From positions 1,830,001-1,862,000 of the forward strand of contig CP104013.1 in NCBI GenBank assembly GCA_025839675.1: a DNA stretch of 32,000 bases, written 5' to 3'. The translations under genes were made by a program, and so were the position numbers. This DNA comes from Candidatus Lokiarchaeum ossiferum. GTDB lineage: Archaea; Asgardarchaeota; Lokiarchaeia; Sigyniarchaeales; Promethearchaeaceae. The notes beneath the pieces were generated by a model. That model saw only the letters and a program-made list of their open reading frames with translations. It was not told where the DNA came from and ran no database searches. This document shows, piece after piece, positions 7,400 to 32,000 of this stretch (position 1 is its first letter; each line of letters begins with the position of its first letter).

Positions 7400-7981
7400 A
7401 TGTATAAAAAAATTTGTAAAATTGTCATCGCAGGTGATGGTGGAACAGGAAAAACAACCTTGATCAATTCAATGAAAACAAATTGTTTTTCTTACGCATC
7501 AAAAATTACGATTGGAGTCGATTTTGCATGTTTTCCAGTTCAAATTAAATCTTCTCCCGACCAAGAAATTACTTTTCTTATTTATGATCTTGGGGGTCAA
7601 AAACGTTTTCATTTCATGCATTCTTCCTACATTATCGGATCAAAAGCCGCAATAATTCTTTATGATTTAAATCGACCAAAAACTTTTGAAAATCTGGAGT
7701 ATTGGATTACTATTTTGCAAAAGGAAAATCCCTACATGCCCATCCTCATAGGAGGTGCTAAAAAGGACTTAACTCAGCCAACAGACATAAAGTATTATCG
7801 AAAAAAATGGCAGATATTATTTCAACAAATAGAAAATTCACAATATATCATTGATCACATAGTAATTTCTTCCAAGACTCGAGAAGGAATTGAAAACATT
7901 TTTCAAAAAATTGGTCAAGCAGTTCTTCAACCAGAAATTATTTTAAAACAACATAATTACGCCAAATTTAAAAATATTTAG
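7400..7981 (+). CDS. Small GTPase, Ras superfamily, Rab-like
   Basis: G1 GDGGTGKTT, switch-I TIGVDF (Rab RabF1-like IGVDF), G3 YDLGGQKRF, G4 variant GGAKKDL (AKKD instead of NKxD), G5 ISSKT. The 193-aa length is typical. No C-terminal Cys prenylation motif (ends KFKNI). Confidence 0.85.
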   Translation: MYKKICKIVIAGDGGTGKTTLINSMKTNCFSYASKITIGVDFACFPVQIKSSPDQEITFLIYDLGGQKRFHFMHSSYIIGSKAAIILYDLNRPKTFENLEYWITILQKENPYMPILIGGAKKDLTQPTDIKYYRKKWQILFQQIENSQYIIDHIVISSKTREGIENIFQKIGQAVLQPEIILKQHNYAKFKNI

Positions 7982-8916: not shown

Positions 8917-9654
8917 GTGGAATCCAATAACAATAATATTTTGCCCTCATCAGTTGGAAAATCATCGAGCACTTCGTGTATGATCTGCCACATGCCCATT
9001 GAACTGACAAATTTTGGTATGGGAGAAAATATTTTAGAGCAAAATTACGTTGGATGTCCTAATGCTCATTTAGTTCATCGAGAATGTTTAAAACGATGGA
9101 TTATTCATAGTCAAAACTGCCCAGTTTGTCATGAAAAGTATGATATTAAAATCATTCAAATTTTTGAAGAGTATGTTGCCCAAAAAGAAGCAGATAAGGA
9201 AAGATCAAAGCAACAAAAACAAGATTCACAACGAAAAACACTCGATCAACCAGAACAGATCGATCCAGAATTTGAAGAAAAGTTTAATCGTGCAGAAAAT
9301 TTAGCCAAACAGCAAAACTTTGAAGCGGCAATGAATATTTATTGGGATATCTTGGAACAGAATAAATATCCAAAAGATGATGGAAAAACTCTCCGGGTTG
9401 TTTTACACTTGGGATTAGCTTATTATAAAATGGGCAAATATGCTCAATGTATTCGCCAATTAATGAAAATAATAAAAATTGATTATAATTATCCATTGGT
9501 ATTTTACTTCCTAGGCTTAACTTATGAACAACTGGAAATGGCTGATAAAACAAAATGGGCAATGGAGAGAGCAAAAATTAATGCTGAAAAACTGTCCAGT
9601 AAAAATGATAAATACACCAAATATTTGGCTGATATTAAAAAAAGGTTAAAATAA
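8917..9654 (+). CDS. RING-H2 zinc-finger protein with C-terminal TPR-like repeats (putative E3 ubiquitin-ligase-like)
   Basis: Exact RING-H2 spacing C-x2-C-x22-C-x3-H-x2-H-x2-C-x10-C-x2-C in CMICHMPIELTNFGMGENILEQNYVGCPNAHLVHRECLKRWIIHSQNCPVC, including the conserved Trp (KRWI). C-terminal TPR-like helices (AENLAKQQNFEAAMNIYWDILEQN; LHLGLAYYKMGKYAQCIRQLMKIIKIDYNYPLVFYFLGLTYEQLEM). A GTG start at 8917 is required: an in-frame TAG lies at 8911-8913, and the first ATG falls inside the RING. Confidence 0.8.
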   Translation: MESNNNNILPSSVGKSSSTSCMICHMPIELTNFGMGENILEQNYVGCPNAHLVHRECLKRWIIHSQNCPVCHEKYDIKIIQIFEEYVAQKEADKERSKQQKQDSQRKTLDQPEQIDPEFEEKFNRAENLAKQQNFEAAMNIYWDILEQNKYPKDDGKTLRVVLHLGLAYYKMGKYAQCIRQLMKIIKIDYNYPLVFYFLGLTYEQLEMADKTKWAMERAKINAEKLSSKNDKYTKYLADIKKRLK

Positions 9655-25165: not shown

Positions 25166-27454
25166 TTAAATAAAATCATAAAATGAGTTTTCAACGAGAT
25201 CATGATCCTTACTAAAAGGAATTGTATCCCCATTCCAATTTTTTAATCTTTGATAATGGCGTTTCTGGAAAGCTTGAAGAAATTCCTTGAGAGAACTCCG
25301 AATTGTAGCAATTTCCCTATCTGCAAAAACTGCAGCAAAGATATCCAACCGATCTAAATATTCAAGTAAGACAACTTTATCCCCACAGTCAATAGAGCGA
25401 AGTAAATCCTTACTCCGGGTAGTCTCCTTAACAAAAGATGTTATGGCAGAAAACATCCCACTTACTAAAAAGGGGGAAACAGGCTCAACGCCACCCATAT
25501 TTTCTTGAAAATTATGAAAAAATAAATTCCGACCATCAGGCGATAAAACATAAAGAGAATCTAAACGAGCTTGTTCAAAAAGACAAGAAAATTCTGGGAT
25601 CCATGAAGAAATTGCATTTTCTTTATGTAATGTTATTAAAAAATCTTTCAGTTTGGAATAATTTCCATCTGCAGATAAAACAAGTTCATGAATGTACACT
25701 TCTGGACAACTGAAAATGTGATCAAATAATTTTTGAAAGCGAGAAGATCGATTCATTAAGATATTCACTGGATTAAAACGTACTAATAATTGACCTTTTG
25801 ATTGAATGTTTCGAATAAGATGAAGATTATCACATTTTGAGAAAGAAATTCGTTCAATTTGAGTTTTAGAAGTTTGGAAGGATTTTACCATAAAATTGGT
25901 TTGGAATAATCGAATAAAATACCCCCATAGAAAAAGAACCGCAAATGGTCTTATAAGAATGAAAGGGGAAGAAATTGTTCGCAGAAGAATTTGTGTAGGA
26001 TCAGAAAAATCAGCGTACAAGAACGCCGTTCTTATCGAAGTAAGATTTATCCCAAGGTATTTTGTTATAACTGGCGTGCTGGTCATCCAAACATGATCAT
26101 ACTGAATAAATAGCGGTGATATGAACGACCCTCCAAAAACGATAGAACCGAGCCAAGTAAATATTAAAGCAATAATTGAAAAAATAAGAATCACCCACTT
26201 TTGATGAATAGAATTTCGACTGGCTACAGCGAAGAAATAACCAAATACTAAAATACGTAAAACTTTCTCAATAGACCACAATGAAAATATAGAATCAATA
26301 GTAACCATAATGGATAGGGAGGGATGAGATGAAATTAAAGCGAGATCATAGAAATCCAAAGAATCGGGGAGTTTTGATAGCAGAGGATTTGTAATTATGG
26401 TTAGTAAAAGAAAACTTAGGAAGGAAAAAGAACACGCAATTATAGCACAATAAGTAATTTGCCATAAATTTTCATTTTTTAAGCGATTTGATTTGATTTC
26501 TCTTTCATTTGTACGATCTTTCTTATTTAACATCCATTTTATTGAATTTATTAATTTTAAAAGGAGAAAAATACTGATCGGTTCAAAAATCCTTAAATTG
26601 AGAATAAAAATGACCACACCCATTAAAAAATAACATGAAAAATAAAAGATCATTACAAGGCTATCGGGCTGGTTTAAAATGAACAATAATATAGATAAAA
26701 TAGAAATTGGAGTTCCAACTTGCTTTATGCTTGAAAAAAAACTCTGTTGCATCGATTCTCCAAAAAATCGCCCTTTGAAGGAGAGGCGACTCGATCGTAC
26801 TAATATAAAACCAAAAAGCAGAGTTGAAAGATAAATGAAGTATATCTCTAAAAACCACCCTAATCCAGTCGAATTTTCGGATAAATTGAGAACATCAACA
26901 GTAGTTAAATTGAGAATCATGGTCAAAATAAATAACGAGAAAGGTAATAGAATTAGAAATGACCTCAATATCACCCATTCTTTCTTCCAAGTGGAGTCTT
27001 TGAAGCCAGACACAATCATTTCTTTGGGAGAACTGCTAAATTCATAATTTAAATGTAGAAAAATTTGTTTCAAAGATAATTTGGACTCCGATTTTAGCCT
27101 GAAAGACAAAATGATTAAAGAAACAATCGGAGAAATGATAAAAATAAAGGGAAGAAGATCAAAAGAATATTGAGCATAACTAAATAATAAAGTAATTGCA
27201 CGGATTATTAGGTAAGAAAAACCTTTCAAACCTTCATGACTCTCATCAGAATCAAATCCCATAGGATATGATTTCACTCCCAAAATACTTGGTAAAATCC
27301 AATAGATGGCAAAAAATAAAACTAATCCAATGTAGAACCGTTTATACATCATCTGGAAAAATTTTCTCTTTCTAAATAAAAGAATAGGTATGAAAAACAA
27401 TCCTAAGGGAATTAAATTAAAGACAATTGAAAACGCAATATTTTGAAAACCCAC
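25166..27454 (-). CDS. Polytopic membrane protein (>=14 hydrophobic spans) with ~240-aa cytoplasmic tail carrying a roadblock/longin-like alpha/beta segment
   Basis: GTG start at 27454. Residues 1-~520 are almost continuously hydrophobic helices. Residues ~520-762 are soluble. Residues ~620-735 show the pattern strand-strand-helix-strand-strand-helix: LYVLSPDGRNLFFHNF / LVSGMFSAITSFVKE / LRSIDCGDKVVLLEYLDRLDIFAAVFAD / IRSSLKEFLQAFQKR. The gene call is solid; the fold assignment is by eye only. Confidence 0.55.
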   Translation of the reverse strand: MGFQNIAFSIVFNLIPLGLFFIPILLFRKRKFFQMMYKRFYIGLVLFFAIYWILPSILGVKSYPMGFDSDESHEGLKGFSYLIIRAITLLFSYAQYSFDLLPFIFIISPIVSLIILSFRLKSESKLSLKQIFLHLNYEFSSSPKEMIVSGFKDSTWKKEWVILRSFLILLPFSLFILTMILNLTTVDVLNLSENSTGLGWFLEIYFIYLSTLLFGFILVRSSRLSFKGRFFGESMQQSFFSSIKQVGTPISILSILLFILNQPDSLVMIFYFSCYFLMGVVIFILNLRIFEPISIFLLLKLINSIKWMLNKKDRTNEREIKSNRLKNENLWQITYCAIIACSFSFLSFLLLTIITNPLLSKLPDSLDFYDLALISSHPSLSIMVTIDSIFSLWSIEKVLRILVFGYFFAVASRNSIHQKWVILIFSIIALIFTWLGSIVFGGSFISPLFIQYDHVWMTSTPVITKYLGINLTSIRTAFLYADFSDPTQILLRTISSPFILIRPFAVLFLWGYFIRLFQTNFMVKSFQTSKTQIERISFSKCDNLHLIRNIQSKGQLLVRFNPVNILMNRSSRFQKLFDHIFSCPEVYIHELVLSADGNYSKLKDFLITLHKENAISSWIPEFSCLFEQARLDSLYVLSPDGRNLFFHNFQENMGGVEPVSPFLVSGMFSAITSFVKETTRSKDLLRSIDCGDKVVLLEYLDRLDIFAAVFADREIATIRSSLKEFLQAFQKRHYQRLKNWNGDTIPFSKDHDLVENSFYDFI

Positions 27455-27554
27455 ATTACAGATATATGAATTATTAATATAATAAGTCGTTTCATCTCCA
27501 ATTAGAAAATGTAACTTGAAATGAATTTAAGAAAAAAAATGGAAACTAAAGAAA

Positions 27555-28688
27555 TTAATCGGCTGCAACTTCTTCCTTCTTTTTCGCCGCCGCTTTCTTC
27601 AATTTCACTTGGGCATAATACTCGTCCTTCATCATATCCAAGGCTTTTAACAGCGCATTCGGATTTTGAGAGCGGGTACGATACTGTTGACGAATGTTGT
27701 CAATATTATAACGCGGATAAAAACGTTCAATGAAGAAATCCGAGGTCAAACAGAAATATTCATTGTTCTTATCATCTTGGAAGACCGCAATCATCTTGGT
27801 TTCCCACATGGCTTTCAAAACCCGATCCACATCATCCACCCCTTTCTTCCGAAGTTTTTCCAAATCGTTGCGAGTCACCATGGCTTCCCGCATCAATTTA
27901 ATCACTTCATAGCAGGCCGGATCCAAGAGTACTTTATCGATGATCGCCAAATTATCCGCTTCACTGGGGACATACAGTTCAAAGAAATTGCGTACTTCCT
28001 TGATGTAAGAATCCTTCAAGGATGCCGGTAGATGATGATCCACGGGATCTTTGACCAACTCCACCGGAGGAGTACGTAAAACCATGATATCCTCGGTTAA
28101 AAAGACCAAATCAGAAGATAACCCCTTCACGGAAGCGATTTTCACAAGCCCAAGTTTCACCATCCCCGCCAAGAGGTTTTCCACATCCACAAAACCTTCG
28201 CGGTATTGATCCTTCATCCAAATCGAGATTTCGGATTTCGAAATGGCTGTTTCTTCCCGTAAACGATTTAATAACATCCGTTTGACATCACTATTTAATA
28301 ACATCCCATAGCGTTGTTCTTCGGTTAACGTTGGATAGACCGACAAACGTTGGAACAAGGGAGGCAAAATCGAATTTAAGGAATCCGACTCCAAATTCAT
28401 CAGAATTTGGCGCGTAATTTCCGCCAACCCTTCTTCATACACATCCCCATCTTCTTCAGCGGTGAGAATCAAGATCACATACACTGCCGATTCGGGTCCG
28501 GTATAATAGGAAGCGAGATTGACCGCCCCTGCCGTCAATGACACCATTCCAGCTTCACCGGTAAATTCATGTTGGGAATAAAGTTGCATCAAGGTTTTCT
28601 CTTGAATGACCACTTCTTCAGGGTAGGCCCCTAACACTTCGACCCCCACCCGTTCATCCCAATGCATTATGACTAATCCAGTTGGCAT
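27555..28688 (-). CDS. Cytosolic protein: longin-like N-terminal domain plus two winged-helix-like segments and a Lys/Ala-rich tail
   Basis: ATG at 28688 lies 1 nt after the stop of the upstream giant ORF. No TM or signal peptide. Residues 1-105 follow a strand-strand-helix-strand-strand-strand-helix pattern: GLVIMHWDERVGVEVLGAY / EKTLMQLYSQHEF / MVSLTAGAVNLASYYTG..AVYVILILTAEED / YEEGLAEITRQILMNL. Residues ~130-200 and ~250-320 look like wHTH units (for example ISKSEISIWMKDQYREGFVDVENLLAGMVKLGLVKIASVKG). GC content is clearly above that of the neighbours. The gene call is solid; domain calls are by eye. Confidence 0.55.
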   Translation of the reverse strand: MPTGLVIMHWDERVGVEVLGAYPEEVVIQEKTLMQLYSQHEFTGEAGMVSLTAGAVNLASYYTGPESAVYVILILTAEEDGDVYEEGLAEITRQILMNLESDSLNSILPPLFQRLSVYPTLTEEQRYGMLLNSDVKRMLLNRLREETAISKSEISIWMKDQYREGFVDVENLLAGMVKLGLVKIASVKGLSSDLVFLTEDIMVLRTPPVELVKDPVDHHLPASLKDSYIKEVRNFFELYVPSEADNLAIIDKVLLDPACYEVIKLMREAMVTRNDLEKLRKKGVDDVDRVLKAMWETKMIAVFQDDKNNEYFCLTSDFFIERFYPRYNIDNIRQQYRTRSQNPNALLKALDMMKDEYYAQVKLKKAAAKKKEEVAAD

Positions 28689-28689
28689 T

Positions 28690-31600
28690 TTAAAGCCCTC
28701 CTACTTCTTCATCGCCTGCAGCAATGACAGAATCTGATGCAGTTTTTGCATCATTTACACCCAAAATCGAAGCAAGATCTAAATCTAAGATTTGCCAACG
28801 TTCTGCCAGAACTTCAACAATTTCATCTTTTGCAGTTAAACTGATTAATCCATCGGGTAGATCATGCTTTTTCTCCATATCTTTCTTCGTCGCATCAATT
28901 TGTTTAATAATCAAAGGAATTCGAGCACGTTTGATACCTTGTTGCACCATTATTATCACAACTACAGCCCCCAAAGTAGATCCGATTATAATCCAATTTT
29001 GGAATGTGACCCCTAAATAGGGATCCACAGGAAGTGTGATGGCAAATGTTACAGTTTCTTCTACCGTTGTATAGTTTTCTTTACTTATGGCCAGTGTTAA
29101 TAAATAGGAATTTACATTATGAGTTTTCAACTCTGCAGGAGTAAAAACGTATGAATAAACTCCTGCATCTCCTTCAACTAAGACATATTCCCGATTATTA
29201 AAACTTAAAACTACATTCGCACCTTGAATTCCAAGTTCTACGGAAAAAGTGATTCCTTGATTCTGAGGGGTATCAATTACCCCTTCGATCGCAATTTCAT
29301 CGAATATTGATACCACATCAATAGTTTTTGTTCCAACGATGATATCAAAAGTAGTTTCTGCATTTGAGTAATTCATAATACTGGACACAATTTTTATTCT
29401 ATAAGATCCCAAAGTGTTTCCATTGAAATGATAAAGATAGAATCCATTCGAATCAAAAGTCAAATCACCATCTTCAATTTCAATCGTTTTATTGTTTGCA
29501 AGGTCATAGATATAATATACAACCCCAGCATTGTTAATTACATTATTTTCCAAATGGCTTTCATCATCAGACACAAATAATTTCACACCCATATCTACCA
29601 TTTCATCCAATTCAATGTTAATGGTTTCCACTATTGAGGAAGCAGTCGAATTCATTAAAGGTATTAAAGTGGTTTTTAGAGGTTCAATCAATAAGTGTTC
29701 ATGGGTCCAAGCTTCTGCATAAACGCTCACATTGATAATTGGAATAGCATAAAATACCGTTTGTTTCGCTACTGAGACAATGCCAGTGTTAAACCACACA
29801 TCATAATAACCAGCACCTAAGTCATTATTCGCATTCCAACCCCAAAGAGATCCCATAGTACTAGCACCTAAAGAATGAATCAAGTTTTCCTTTTCTCCTT
29901 GGATAGAAGTAATGTTCAACCCAGAAATATCAGCCCCAGATAACGCAAGACCATTACGCGGAGATTCTGAACAATAATATTTCATTGTAAAAGTTGAATT
30001 CTCACCCCATGGATATATTATCGGAGGATTAATTACTTCTATTTCAGTCTCCCAATATTCAATTATTTCTAAATCGAGATTAACTGTTTTTGTTGCAGTA
30101 TTCTCTTTTTGGGCACTTAGAGTTAAGGTGTATTGTCCTGCCGGGAAATTAATAAGCGATTTATTACAAATATATTCTCCTGTACTTACCTCATAGACAT
30201 CTAAATCCAATCCGATTGAATCTATCCTTCCGGATAACGTCGGATAAATTTCGAGGAAACTCAAAAATTGAACTCCCAAGCTTAACACTTCATTTTGTGC
30301 AATTTTTATCGCATTCGAAGATATTTTAAAATCTTTACCAATTGAATAAACGAAATCCACTGATCTTCGAAGAACTAAAATATTCACAGAAGATTTTTCG
30401 GAAAGTGAATAATTGGTTAATTCCATTGTGAATTCAAGCAAGAATGATCCCACTTTACTCGCAAGGAAAGTAAAATTATATTCACCATTTTCTGTAAAGT
30501 CCAGATACCCTCTTTCAATAGAATTACTTCCGGGTTGAGAAACGTTGTACAAATTATACTCTATTAATGCCCCATCGATCCTTTTTCCTAAAATACTGCT
30601 GGAAGATTCAGTGACATTCATTATGACGTTTATGTCGATTGAATCATCGAAATAAAGTTCTACTTCTTGGATCTCCGATTCACTATCAAATGGTGTAAGA
30701 GAAGTATCCACAGGACGAATTGAAACCCATGGTTTTACAGTTGCTATAGAATATTGAGATTGTTCAATGGTTGGAATGATATAGAATAATTTCTCACTTG
30801 CTACTTCTAAAACACTCGTATTTACCTCAATTCGATAATAACCATCGCCATAAGCACCATCATCTTTTAGATTTTCCCAAGTCCAATTTGCAGGATCACT
30901 CGAAGAAAGCAAAATTTCTTCAACTTCAGTAGCACCTTCCATATAAGTAATCGAGAGTTGAGAAATTTCGGCATCACTCAGCGGATCGCTTAATCGAGGT
31001 TCGGATGTGCATTCATAATAAACATAGAATGTGACATTATTACTCCAAGAAGTTGATAATGGAGGATTAACGATTTCTAATTTGGAACTCCAGGTAGATA
31101 AGATTTCCACATTTATTTTGATAGTTGAATTTTCGTGGTTCATTTTTTCAGTGATAATGTAAAATTCGTGGAAACCTAAACTAAAACCAGAAGCACTTAC
31201 CGTACAGTTATATTGCCATTCTCCAAGCCCATAATTATAATTCATTATAGGATTGGCAAGAGTATCTAAATATACCGTAATACTTGCATCATTGACTTGG
31301 CTGGAATTACTCACATAGGTATAATTCAAAAATGTCGTGATATTTTCCGTGATTGATGTTCGTAGTGAAGTATCACTTATTTTGAAGTCGGATTCAATAA
31401 AAGTATCTGTTTGAGTATCTACAGGTAAAATAGTAATCACTACAGTCAAGGATTGCGCCGTAAGGTTTCTTGCAGCAGCACTCAAACTGATTGTGTAAAC
31501 CCCAACATTCAAACTATATTTTGAAACAGTGAGTAAATACACACTACTGCTCGCATCTAAACTCGCTAATGTTCCCGAAAATACAGTATCTTGAATGGTA

Positions 31601-32000
31601 TATTCAATGGTTGAAATCGAATCAGAAATGTTCATAATTTCAGGAAGAACTGTTGTATAGTTGAAAGAAATAACAATATCTTGATCCCATTGTTTAGTAA
31701 GTTCAGATGTAGATGTTATTCGTTGGAATTTTGTGGTGTGATTCAATATTCGAATTTCACAAACAAAAGTAGAACTTTGCAAATCTTCAGTACCAGCATT
31801 TTGACCTCCTACTACAAATGTAAACACATAAGTTCCTGCCCCATACTGTGTTGAGAATAAACTAATATTGTATAAACCGGTCCCCACAGATAAATCATTG
31901 AAATCATCTGAGGATGAATCATTTATACTGTTTCCATTTTTAGTTAATTCCCAACTTCCTGTAGTTAGCCCTACTCCATGAGTTACAGCAGCATCATTGA
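28690..32000 (-). CDS. Giant single-pass (type-I-like) surface protein, sequon-rich, internally duplicated; 5' end outside the window
   Basis: The reading frame stays open from the track's GTG (31887) up to nt 32000, so the N-terminus is missing. About 960 aa of Ser/Thr/Asn-rich beta-type sequence carries roughly two dozen N-x-S/T sequons (counted by eye). One TM (WIIIGSTLGAVVVIIMV, ~28942-28995) is followed by KRAR and an ~83-aa acidic cytoplasmic tail. Confidence 0.7.
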   Translation of the reverse strand, partial: NDAAVTHGVGLTTGSWELTKNGNSINDSSSDDFNDLSVGTGLYNISLFSTQYGAGTYVFTFVVGGQNAGTEDLQSSTFVCEIRILNHTTKFQRITSTSELTKQWDQDIVISFNYTTVLPEIMNISDSISTIEYTIQDTVFSGTLASLDASSSVYLLTVSKYSLNVGVYTISLSAAARNLTAQSLTVVITILPVDTQTDTFIESDFKISDTSLRTSITENITTFLNYTYVSNSSQVNDASITVYLDTLANPIMNYNYGLGEWQYNCTVSASGFSLGFHEFYIITEKMNHENSTIKINVEILSTWSSKLEIVNPPLSTSWSNNVTFYVYYECTSEPRLSDPLSDAEISQLSITYMEGATEVEEILLSSSDPANWTWENLKDDGAYGDGYYRIEVNTSVLEVASEKLFYIIPTIEQSQYSIATVKPWVSIRPVDTSLTPFDSESEIQEVELYFDDSIDINVIMNVTESSSSILGKRIDGALIEYNLYNVSQPGSNSIERGYLDFTENGEYNFTFLASKVGSFLLEFTMELTNYSLSEKSSVNILVLRRSVDFVYSIGKDFKISSNAIKIAQNEVLSLGVQFLSFLEIYPTLSGRIDSIGLDLDVYEVSTGEYICNKSLINFPAGQYTLTLSAQKENTATKTVNLDLEIIEYWETEIEVINPPIIYPWGENSTFTMKYYCSESPRNGLALSGADISGLNITSIQGEKENLIHSLGASTMGSLWGWNANNDLGAGYYDVWFNTGIVSVAKQTVFYAIPIINVSVYAEAWTHEHLLIEPLKTTLIPLMNSTASSIVETINIELDEMVDMGVKLFVSDDESHLENNVINNAGVVYYIYDLANNKTIEIEDGDLTFDSNGFYLYHFNGNTLGSYRIKIVSSIMNYSNAETTFDIIVGTKTIDVVSIFDEIAIEGVIDTPQNQGITFSVELGIQGANVVLSFNNREYVLVEGDAGVYSYVFTPAELKTHNVNSYLLTLAISKENYTTVEETVTFAITLPVDPYLGVTFQNWIIIGSTLGAVVVIIMVQQGIKRARIPLIIKQIDATKKDMEKKHDLPDGLISLTAKDEIVEVLAERWQILDLDLASILGVNDAKTASDSVIAAGDEEVGGL
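29338..31215 (-). repeat. Intragenic tandem duplication: two ~280-aa homologous segments, period ~346 aa, within the giant surface-protein gene
   Basis: Protein-level parallels at an offset of ~346 aa: KLEIVNPPLSTSWSNNVTFYVYYECTSEPR vs EIEVINPPIIYPWGENSTFTMKYYCSESPR; GDGYYRIEVNTSVLEVASEKLFYIIP vs GAGYYDVWFNTGIVSVAKQTVFYAIP; LDFTENGEYNFTFLASKVGSFLLEFTMELTNYS vs LTFDSNGFYLYHFNGNTLGSYRIKIVSSIMNYS. Divergent at the DNA level. Confidence 0.6.

Follow-up and report, generated by a model that had tools for sequence, protein, structure and literature searches.

Giant surface protein genes paired with longin/winged-helix protein genes in Candidatus Lokiarchaeum ossiferum and other Lokiarchaeia

In GATOR1, folliculin and C9orf72-SMCR8, the beta1-beta2 and beta4-beta5 loops of longin domains form a GTPase pocket (PMC12290439). 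NPRL2-like longins have been described in Asgard archaea (Liu et al.) and their enrichment has been noted (PMC9834061); Asgard longin, roadblock and GTPase eukaryotic signature proteins (ESPs) are numerous, with almost none placed in a known cellular context. The studied proteins of the Asgard longin/roadblock superfamily (Lokiarchaeota Roadblock-Longin, PDB 8yqg; asCOG Roadblock/LC7) are either small and soluble or GTPase-fused. Here we describe a locus of Candidatus Lokiarchaeum ossiferum in which one longin domain of this superfamily is instead linked genetically to a giant surface protein and another is fused to a membrane domain of about 12 transmembrane (TM) helices. The locus lies in a stretch of 32,000 nucleotides (nt) of contig CP104013.1, referred to below as the window, and comprises three open reading frames (ORFs): one for a giant type-I surface protein (the giant), one for a protein of 377 amino acids (aa) and one for a polytopic membrane protein of 762 aa. 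The species was identified from the 377-aa product, which is 100% identical to a protein of L. ossiferum, and the 762-aa product matches NEF87_001530 of L. ossiferum strain B35. All three ORFs run in the same direction on the minus strand, as had been noted in an earlier reading made from the letters of this DNA (the sequence-only reading), which proposed that they form a three-gene module. The giant ORF runs open into the window edge, and only its last 1,102 codons and stop are visible. The features of the locus are as follows.

28690..32000, minus strand: 3′ part of the giant type-I surface protein gene (ORF open at the window edge)
30265..31215, minus strand: ectodomain repeat unit 1, visible residues 262-578 (BLASTP against unit 2)
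29233..30177, minus strand: ectodomain repeat unit 2, visible residues 608-922 (BLASTP against unit 1)
28945..28998, minus strand: single TM helix of the giant, NWIIIGSTLGAVVVIIMV, visible residues 1001-1018
28693..28944, minus strand: conserved 84-aa cytoplasmic tail of the giant, kept on giants with unrelated ectodomains
28697..28701, minus strand: GGAGG, Shine-Dalgarno-like, within the final codons of the giant (direct sequence reading)
28686..28692, minus strand: stop/start junction TAA-A-ATG with a 1-nt gap (direct sequence reading)
27555..28688, minus strand: 377-aa protein gene (AlphaFold2, Foldseek, homologues)
28389..28688, minus strand: longin domain of the 377-aa protein, aa 1-100
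28044..28298, minus strand: winged helix 1 of the 377-aa protein, aa 131-215
27711..27962, minus strand: winged helix 2 of the 377-aa protein, aa 243-326, with an invariant EKLRKKGVDD motif
27455..27554, minus strand: 100-nt spacer between the 377-aa and 762-aa genes
25166..27454, minus strand: 762-aa polytopic membrane protein gene
25184-25612, minus strand: C-terminal longin-like domain of the 762-aa protein, aa 615-757

A class-wide cassette of giant and 377-aa protein genes

The conserved unit at this locus is the pair formed by the giant and the 377-aa protein genes, not the trio, and it is found across Lokiarchaeia, including Helarchaeales. The feature noticed in the window is real and strongly non-random, and is recast here as a class-wide cassette of two genes, sometimes one, that stands beside an unrelated neighbour. 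In the window the two genes meet at a junction that reads GGAGGGCTT-TAA-A-ATG, with the stop at 28692-28690, a single A, and the ATG at 28688-28686; this is the translational-coupling geometry pointed out in the sequence-only reading. The GGAGG at 28701-28697, with 8 nt between it and the start of the 377-aa gene, encodes the conserved terminal Gly-Gly of the giant.

The first four 377 homologues whose surroundings were inspected each began where a giant gene (1,355-3,420 aa) ended, and none had a 762-type gene nearby. A scan of species-representative genomes, with loci selected through the 377 protein, gave 77 further loci and 93 occurrences of a 377 homologue, 81 of them testable by virtue of having enough upstream DNA. 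An ORF of at least 280 codons terminated -1 to +2 nt from the homologue's ATG in 76 of the 81, the distance from stop to ATG being -1 (41 pairs), 0 (15), +1 (8) or +2 nt (12). Where the upstream ORF was complete (n=51), its median length was 1,439 codons and its maximum 2,602. Because it recurs in this way in other genomes, the near-zero spacing of the two genes is not due to chance. Of the 76 pairs, 67 have a GGAGG motif 7-13 nt ahead of the ATG, compared with 1.1% of background 20-nt windows, and 69 of the 76 giants end in ..GG.. because this motif precedes the start of the next gene. The pair therefore shows the marks of translational coupling: a gap of at most 2 nt, a Shine-Dalgarno motif inside the upstream gene and conservation of both across genomes.

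In some Lokiarchaeota the two genes are naturally fused, single ORFs of 1,330-2,548 aa encoding an ectodomain, TM helix, tail, linker of ~25 aa and complete 377 module (P0242, P0243, P0245-P0248 and P0279; L091:3213-10859). One fusion was confirmed on contig DNA, and its 90%-identity cluster includes a 2,548-aa protein deposited as MBY8985841.1 (NCBI, from a Lokiarchaeota metagenome-assembled genome).

The visible part of the window giant contains one TM helix followed by an 84-aa tail with an isoelectric point (pI) of 4.7, and a unit of ~320 aa is present twice in its ectodomain (BLASTP: 30% identity over 321 aa, E 4e-42), which bears out the earlier description of a type-I-like protein with a repeat ectodomain, one TM segment and an acidic tail. 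The orthologue in L. ossiferum strain B36 (CP163304) is 2,380 aa long and has an N-terminal signal peptide. N-x-S/T sequons number 26 in the visible giant, against 14.8 +/- 3.3 in shuffled sequence. Pfam matches to the window giant are weak only, and the Pfam content of the ectodomains varies among loci (Laminin_G_3, DUF2341, MG2, CarboxypepD_reg); the giant ectodomains are fast-evolving, beta-rich and probably glycosylated. The tail is basic beside the membrane, with 8 K/R among its first 30 residues, and acidic farther out. It carries a basic juxtamembrane ARIPLIIKQ motif, an amphipathic W..LDLDLASILGV helix and the terminal GG, and its consensus across giants is R.iQ.ARIPtFVKk...sdsllypsKee...GDkWe.lgLsL..iLG...GG. 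Whether a 377 homologue always comes after a tail-like sequence is a circular question in loci picked by means of the 377 protein, and no weight is placed on it here. At one locus (L026), two giants encoded upstream of positions 2631 and 8677 have tails lengthened by acidic EPPEPE(R/W)EYPE repeats, after which they still finish in the usual ..EGGSEE.

The TM helix of the giant at locus L024 and of other majority-clade giants starts with an FPGFP(M/T)FYF motif that is absent from the window giant. The TM start of one relative (FPGFPMFYF) gave a sub-threshold match (E 0.045) to the Loki-CTERM NCBIfam model NF033507, to which the window giant gives no match. An archaeosortase/Loki-CTERM/PGF-CTERM reading of the giants was rejected, the match being sub-threshold only and an 80-aa tail following the TM helix in every case; there are hints that giants with the FPGFP motif may descend from surface proteins of the sortase type to which a cytoplasmic tail was added.

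Conservation within the cassette is graded. Across 74 pairs, the 377 proteins average 66% pairwise identity, the tails 48% and the 300 ectodomain residues closest to the membrane 31%, and identity of the tail tracks that of the 377 protein (Spearman 0.93) far more closely than does identity of the ectodomain (0.45). Strain B36 (L088, CP163304, 1-19703) carries three tandem cassettes, the third of which is that of the window. The three 377 paralogues share 98.7-100% protein identity and 92-93% DNA identity, with a synonymous divergence (dS) of 0.39-0.47 and a ratio of non-synonymous to synonymous divergence (dN/dS) of about 0.015. The corresponding giants are 30-35% identical to each other in the C-terminal part only, their ectodomains having diverged almost beyond recognition, and their tails have dN/dS values of 0.12-0.29. 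With 377 paralogues that are practically identical, the retention of a copy after every giant gene would seem to reflect a requirement for synthesis that is coupled, stoichiometric and local, and not one for specificity. The idea of a longin platform coupled to a surface protein has been strengthened by this co-divergence, by the natural fusions and by the recurrence of the junction.

Architecture of the 377-aa protein and its likeness to described longin and winged-helix proteins

The 377-aa protein is soluble and acidic (pI 4.9), with no TM helix. An AlphaFold2 model built with 40 homologues in the input (mean predicted local distance difference test score, pLDDT, 89.6) opens with a beta-beta-alpha-beta-beta-beta-alpha domain (aa 2-97), which a helical linker joins to two winged helices, and ends in a long basic C-terminal helix, in accord with the longin domain and two winged helix-turn-helix (wHTH) units that had been proposed from the sequence. 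The five-stranded sheet between helices that defines the longin fold is present both in this model and in the tail of the 762-aa protein. The top Foldseek matches in the PDB are the NPRL3/NPRL2 chains of GATOR1 (best 8fw5_C, E 5.7e-4), and the alignments to 8fw5_C, 9v0j_A and 7t3b_B/C cover the full length in 327-446 columns; they are followed by ESCRT-II Vps22, CPLANE, BLOC-3 and DENND1. The N-terminal domain matches the longins of VAMP7, Ykt6, Sec22b, sigma-adaptin and zeta-COP with a Foldseek probability of 1.0. Profile searching is less revealing: neither the window protein nor 58 diverse members of the 377 family have a Pfam Longin or Robl_LC7 match, and of the PDB searches with family profiles one gave only de novo designs and another weak ArsR-like matches. 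The family is large, with 624 homologues in Lokiarchaeia at 52-79% identity across the class, and 457 members, including fusions, among representatives at 50% identity in a profile search of 1.84 billion representatives.

The closest architectural counterparts are NPRL2 and NPRL3. The 377-aa protein has the same domain order (longin, helical linker, winged helices) and the same size of ~380 aa, an N-terminal longin domain and C-terminal winged helices being evident in both the AlphaFold2 model and the Foldseek matches. The longin signature motifs of the family are W10-D-[ED]-[RK]-x-G15, P23 and S60-Y-Y-T-G64, and its most conserved loops (WDxRxG and SYYTG) fall at the GTPase-pocket positions of longin GTPase-activating proteins (GAPs) (PMC12290439). 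A basic residue occupies position 13 in 35 of the 58 members, and the GP motif before beta2 is reduced to G, with G15 in 53 of 58 and the following Pro in only seven. Positional equivalence between the 377-aa protein and NPRL2 is taken from the secondary-structure register together with a non-significant hhalign alignment. The family is probably the same as the 'NPRL2-like longin domain' of the asCOG collection, whose table carries no gene identifiers. Given that label, the architecture is not wholly unrecognised. Literature searches turned up no description of a 377-type longin paired with, or fused to, giant surface proteins. The pairing also sets the family apart from eukaryotic longin GAPs, none of which is known to be expressed from a gene coupled to, or fused with, that of a giant TM protein, and from GATOR1 in particular, as no DEPDC5-like partner is evident.

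The tandem winged helices of the model match human Vps22 of ESCRT-II (2zme_A, Foldseek probability 0.96). The 377-aa protein differs from Vps22, Vps36 and Vps25 in its additional N-terminal longin domain; the family has no EAP30 or ESCRT-II Pfam match, and no ESCRT genes adjoin the pair in the loci examined.

Winged helices also invite a different interpretation, in which the 377-aa protein would be a membrane-held wHTH transcription factor that sits on the tail of a giant sensor, or is fused to it, and is released or activated by a surface signal, comparable to anti-sigma/sigma pairs, ToxR-type regulators or Notch-like logic. A sensor-like alpha/beta domain joined to a wHTH is a frequent layout of prokaryotic regulators. 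The 377 family profile shows weak similarity over winged helix 2 to the ArsR-type wHTH of PH1932 (PDB profile search, E 3.5e-4), and five to seven of the 58 members have sub-threshold Pfam matches to HTH_20, HTH_5, TrmB and TFIIE_alpha. One family member is named an ArsR regulator by JGI, the C-terminal part is an 'HTH domain' in asCOG, and the Foldseek list for the model includes CRP/FNR, Phr and CodY. The best fold matches, by contrast, are protein-binding winged helices (NPRL2/3, ESCRT-II) and not DNA binders. The basic, DNA-contacting recognition helix and wing expected of ArsR/MarR-type factors are not found in the family: the protein as a whole is acidic, and in the Lokiarchaeia clade the net charge is -2.5 for the recognition helix of winged helix 2, -1.3 for its wing and -1.1 for the recognition helix of winged helix 1. 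A specific regulator would not usually show class-wide identity of 52-79% and a dN/dS of 0.015, and in the fused forms the module is covalently anchored to the membrane. We therefore consider a role in transcription unlikely.

A candidate cytoplasmic subunit of giant surface proteins

Taken together, the cassette, the fusions and the models lead us to regard it as fairly probable that the 377-aa protein is a detachable cytoplasmic subunit of the giant surface proteins. The second gene would be translated by re-initiation of a membrane-bound ribosome at the GGAGG/ATG by the stop of the giant gene, and the 377-aa protein would therefore be made 1:1 with the giant and beside the membrane. It would then bind the tail of the giant, the basic ARIPxFVKK stretch and the amphipathic W..LGLSL..ILG helix docking on an acidic longin/winged-helix surface; the longin domain carries a net charge of about -12 and may meet the basic juxtamembrane stretch with its 8 K/R in 30 residues. 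Every giant, whatever its ectodomain, would thereby receive the same intracellular face, a platform of a longin domain and two winged helices with NPRL2/NPRL3 architecture. Such a platform could recruit a conserved intracellular partner, for which a small GTPase is our first guess because the two most conserved loops of the 377-aa protein lie at the GTPase pocket of longin GAPs; the actin cytoskeleton or ESCRT-type machinery are alternatives. In its variable ectodomain, single TM helix and short conserved tail proposed to bind a conserved adaptor, the arrangement resembles cadherin-catenin and integrin-talin; the likeness is one of architecture alone, between proteins of unrelated fold and without a claim of homology, and the binding is here predicted.

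Tight coupling would equally deliver the 377-aa protein to a ribosome that has just finished the giant, as might be expected of a dedicated biogenesis, targeting or turnover factor acting transiently on the nascent protein to insert it into the membrane, check its quality or sort it into vesicles or protrusions, in the manner of the longin-like SRX domain of the signal recognition particle receptor or the cargo-binding sigma/mu-adaptin longins. The match of its longin domain to cargo- and SNARE-type longins and adaptin small subunits, and that of its tandem winged helices to ESCRT-II Vps22, are in keeping with this, as is, circumstantially, the position of a 762-aa paralogue beside Vps4/ESCRT-II genes. 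The natural fusions, however, hold the module permanently on the mature tail, which fits a stable subunit better. Moreover, the tail emerges only once the ectodomain has already been translocated, and in the loci examined the 377 family has no link to Sec, signal recognition particle or ESCRT genes. A transient role of this kind appears quite unlikely to us.

Several observations weigh against the reading of the 377-aa protein as an NPRL2/3-like subunit of the giants. The likeness to NPRL2/3 holds at the level of fold and architecture only, with TM-scores of about 0.2, and therefore the domain arrangement differs. Neither the window protein nor the 58 diverse members match Pfam NPR2 (PF06218) or NPR3 at E <= 1. 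Compared by hhalign in three ways with NPRL2, represented by the human sequence (validated against PDB 6ces_N) and by a vertebrate alignment, the 377 family gave a probability below 1%, the NPRL2 profile holding vertebrates only (effective sequence number, Neff, 1.45) and having low power. The canonical arginine-finger loop between beta4 and beta5 (R78 of NPRL2) reads S60-Y-Y-T-G64 in the 377 family and has no Arg. The 377-aa protein thus has an NPRL2/3-like architecture, yet is not assignable to that family. The gene neighbourhood of the pair is not enriched in GTPases across the 77 loci. That tail and 377 protein diverge in parallel could stem from linkage and a common constraint instead of contact, and the ectodomain identities are near saturation, which alone lowers their correlation with 377 identity. 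Four loci carry an extra, solo 377 paralogue with no upstream giant gene, and in Helarchaeota 377-like modules are fused to SIR2+TPR instead of giants; the 377-like module has therefore been reused with other effectors and is not exclusive to giants.

The solo paralogues (L036:4377-5444, L040:4352-5419, L054:4282-5349 and L072:3550-4617) lie directly 3′ of a methyltransferase gene, shortly before a normal pair of giant and 377 genes. The SIR2 fusions are encoded by neighbouring genes (P0284 and P0290) on a 247-kb Helarchaeota contig, with the longin domain and two winged helices placed C-terminal to SIR2_2 and TPR repeats, and other Helarchaeota members of the 377 family bear long coiled-coil or Pro-rich extensions.

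What is new here is the longin-platform protein as a putative constant cytoplasmic subunit of hypervariable surface proteins; its biochemical function is inferred. The cassette would place one abundant longin family, under strong constraint, at a definite site in the cell, the cytoplasmic tail of the giant surface proteins, and suggests an undescribed route by which relatives of the archaeal ancestor of eukaryotes connect their surface with the cell interior. Cryo-electron tomography of L. ossiferum has revealed disordered surface densities and membrane-to-membrane connections (PMC9834061; bioRxiv 10.64898/2026.02.13.705702), both of which the giants plausibly form. A tentative extension, possible though doubtful in our view, is that the cassettes constitute a modular outside-in receptor system in which interchangeable giant ectodomains, in contact with a partner, prey or substrate, are set on one invariant NPRL2/3-like subunit that would switch a GTPase or anchor Lokiactin. 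If true, eukaryotic receptor-adaptor-GTPase logic would have a prokaryotic precursor here, located at the surface that models of eukaryogenesis invoke for syntrophic contact. Should the module signal to a GTPase or to the cytoskeleton, it would tie contact between cells to regulation inside them in these relatives of the eukaryotic ancestor. The role of trafficking-type ESPs in cells without endomembranes also becomes directly testable in a cultured organism.

The 762-aa membrane protein and other genes of the window

The AlphaFold2 model of the 762-aa protein (pLDDT 80) has about 12 TM helices over aa 1-518, followed from about residue 519 by a cytoplasmic tail in which a small beta domain and a winged helix precede a longin-type sandwich at the C-terminus. 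The longin/roadblock-like end predicted earlier is thus borne out by AlphaFold2 and Foldseek, and the at least 14 membrane spans predicted with it come down to about 12. All 50 listed Foldseek PDB matches are longin/roadblock proteins that cover the tail only, among them TRAPP Bet5/Trs23, zeta-COP, sigma/mu-adaptin, Sec22b (TM-score 0.68) and LAMTOR, and none of the 50 matched the membrane domain. The protein belongs to no Pfam family and has no Pfam Longin or Robl_LC7 match. More generally, no Pfam, NCBIfam or PADLOC model was matched above threshold by the giant, the 377-aa or the 762-aa protein; a reading as anti-phage defence was set aside, none of the three matching any PADLOC model.

The spacer before the 762-aa gene is exactly the 100 nt counted previously if GTG 27454 is the start, which is backed by conservation of the first 34 residues. 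NCBI annotates a shorter product of 728 aa, a start that probably omits the conserved first TM segment encoded at 27352-27454. A hydrophobic upstream ORF of 27 codons at 27413-27496 (ATG 27496-27494) extends across the GTG start; it is also conserved in a relative. Just past the 377-aa stop, the spacer contains a T8 run (27532-27539), and a TATA-like element, TTATTATATTAATAA, lies at 27471-27485, about 24 nt ahead of GTG 27454. Both are conserved in strain B36 and in a relative with 84% identity in the 762-aa protein, which suggests a terminator and a separate promoter and hence that the 762-aa gene may be transcribed on its own.

These features bear on the idea that the giant, the 377-aa and the 762-aa proteins form a three-component module acting on the Rab-like GTPase encoded at 7400-7981. 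The three genes are adjacent and co-directional in the window, in strain B36 and on a related Lokiarchaeum contig, and both smaller proteins have longin-type domains, which often heterodimerise. Synteny largely refutes such a module: of the 77 other loci, just one has a 762-family match no more than 10 kb from the pair, and this match is partial and at the locus edge, and adjacency of the trio recurs only within the genus Lokiarchaeum, in strain B36 and the relative with the 84%-identical protein. Of the recurrence in related genomes that had been looked for, that of the pair was found, and that of the trio was confined to this genus. Elsewhere the 762 family stands alone among unrelated genes (histone deacetylase and profilin in two genomes), the spacer elements point to separate transcription, and hhalign detects no profile similarity between the 377 family and the 762 tail. 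The GTPase gene is about 17 kb away, with housekeeping genes between. We regard a three-component module as highly improbable; the 762-aa protein is an independent conserved family and not part of the cassette. A paralogue 41% identical to the 762-aa protein (L085:8001-14878) adjoins genes for Vps4, ESCRT-II (Vps25-like) and EAP30, an arrangement not seen with two other homologues. A 360-aa HTH-like protein encoded next to a 762 paralogue was considered as a 377 relative and found to be unrelated to the 377 family.

GTPase genes occur near the pair in 22 of the 77 loci, and 21 of these share one synteny block of a single clade, in which a Gtr1/RagA-like gene stands 6-9 kb upstream of the pair with unrelated genes between (L006:2326-3261 and 20 similar loci). 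We judge this frequency to be close to chance for GTPase-rich genomes, and guilt by association with GTPases was dropped on the grounds of the single block and the intervening genes; the suggested action on the Rab-like protein of the window fares no better. At another locus a Ras-like gene with a 140-aa N-terminal extension (L091:11017-11937) lies convergent to the fusion gene, 158 nt past it. In the window itself, the Ras/Roc-type small GTPase gene (7400-7981), a gene at 8917-9654 for a RING-H2 zinc finger and TPR protein of an E3-ligase-like eukaryotic signature type, and a gene at 579-1580 with a weak, sub-threshold DDE transposase match sit amid housekeeping and ABC-transporter genes.

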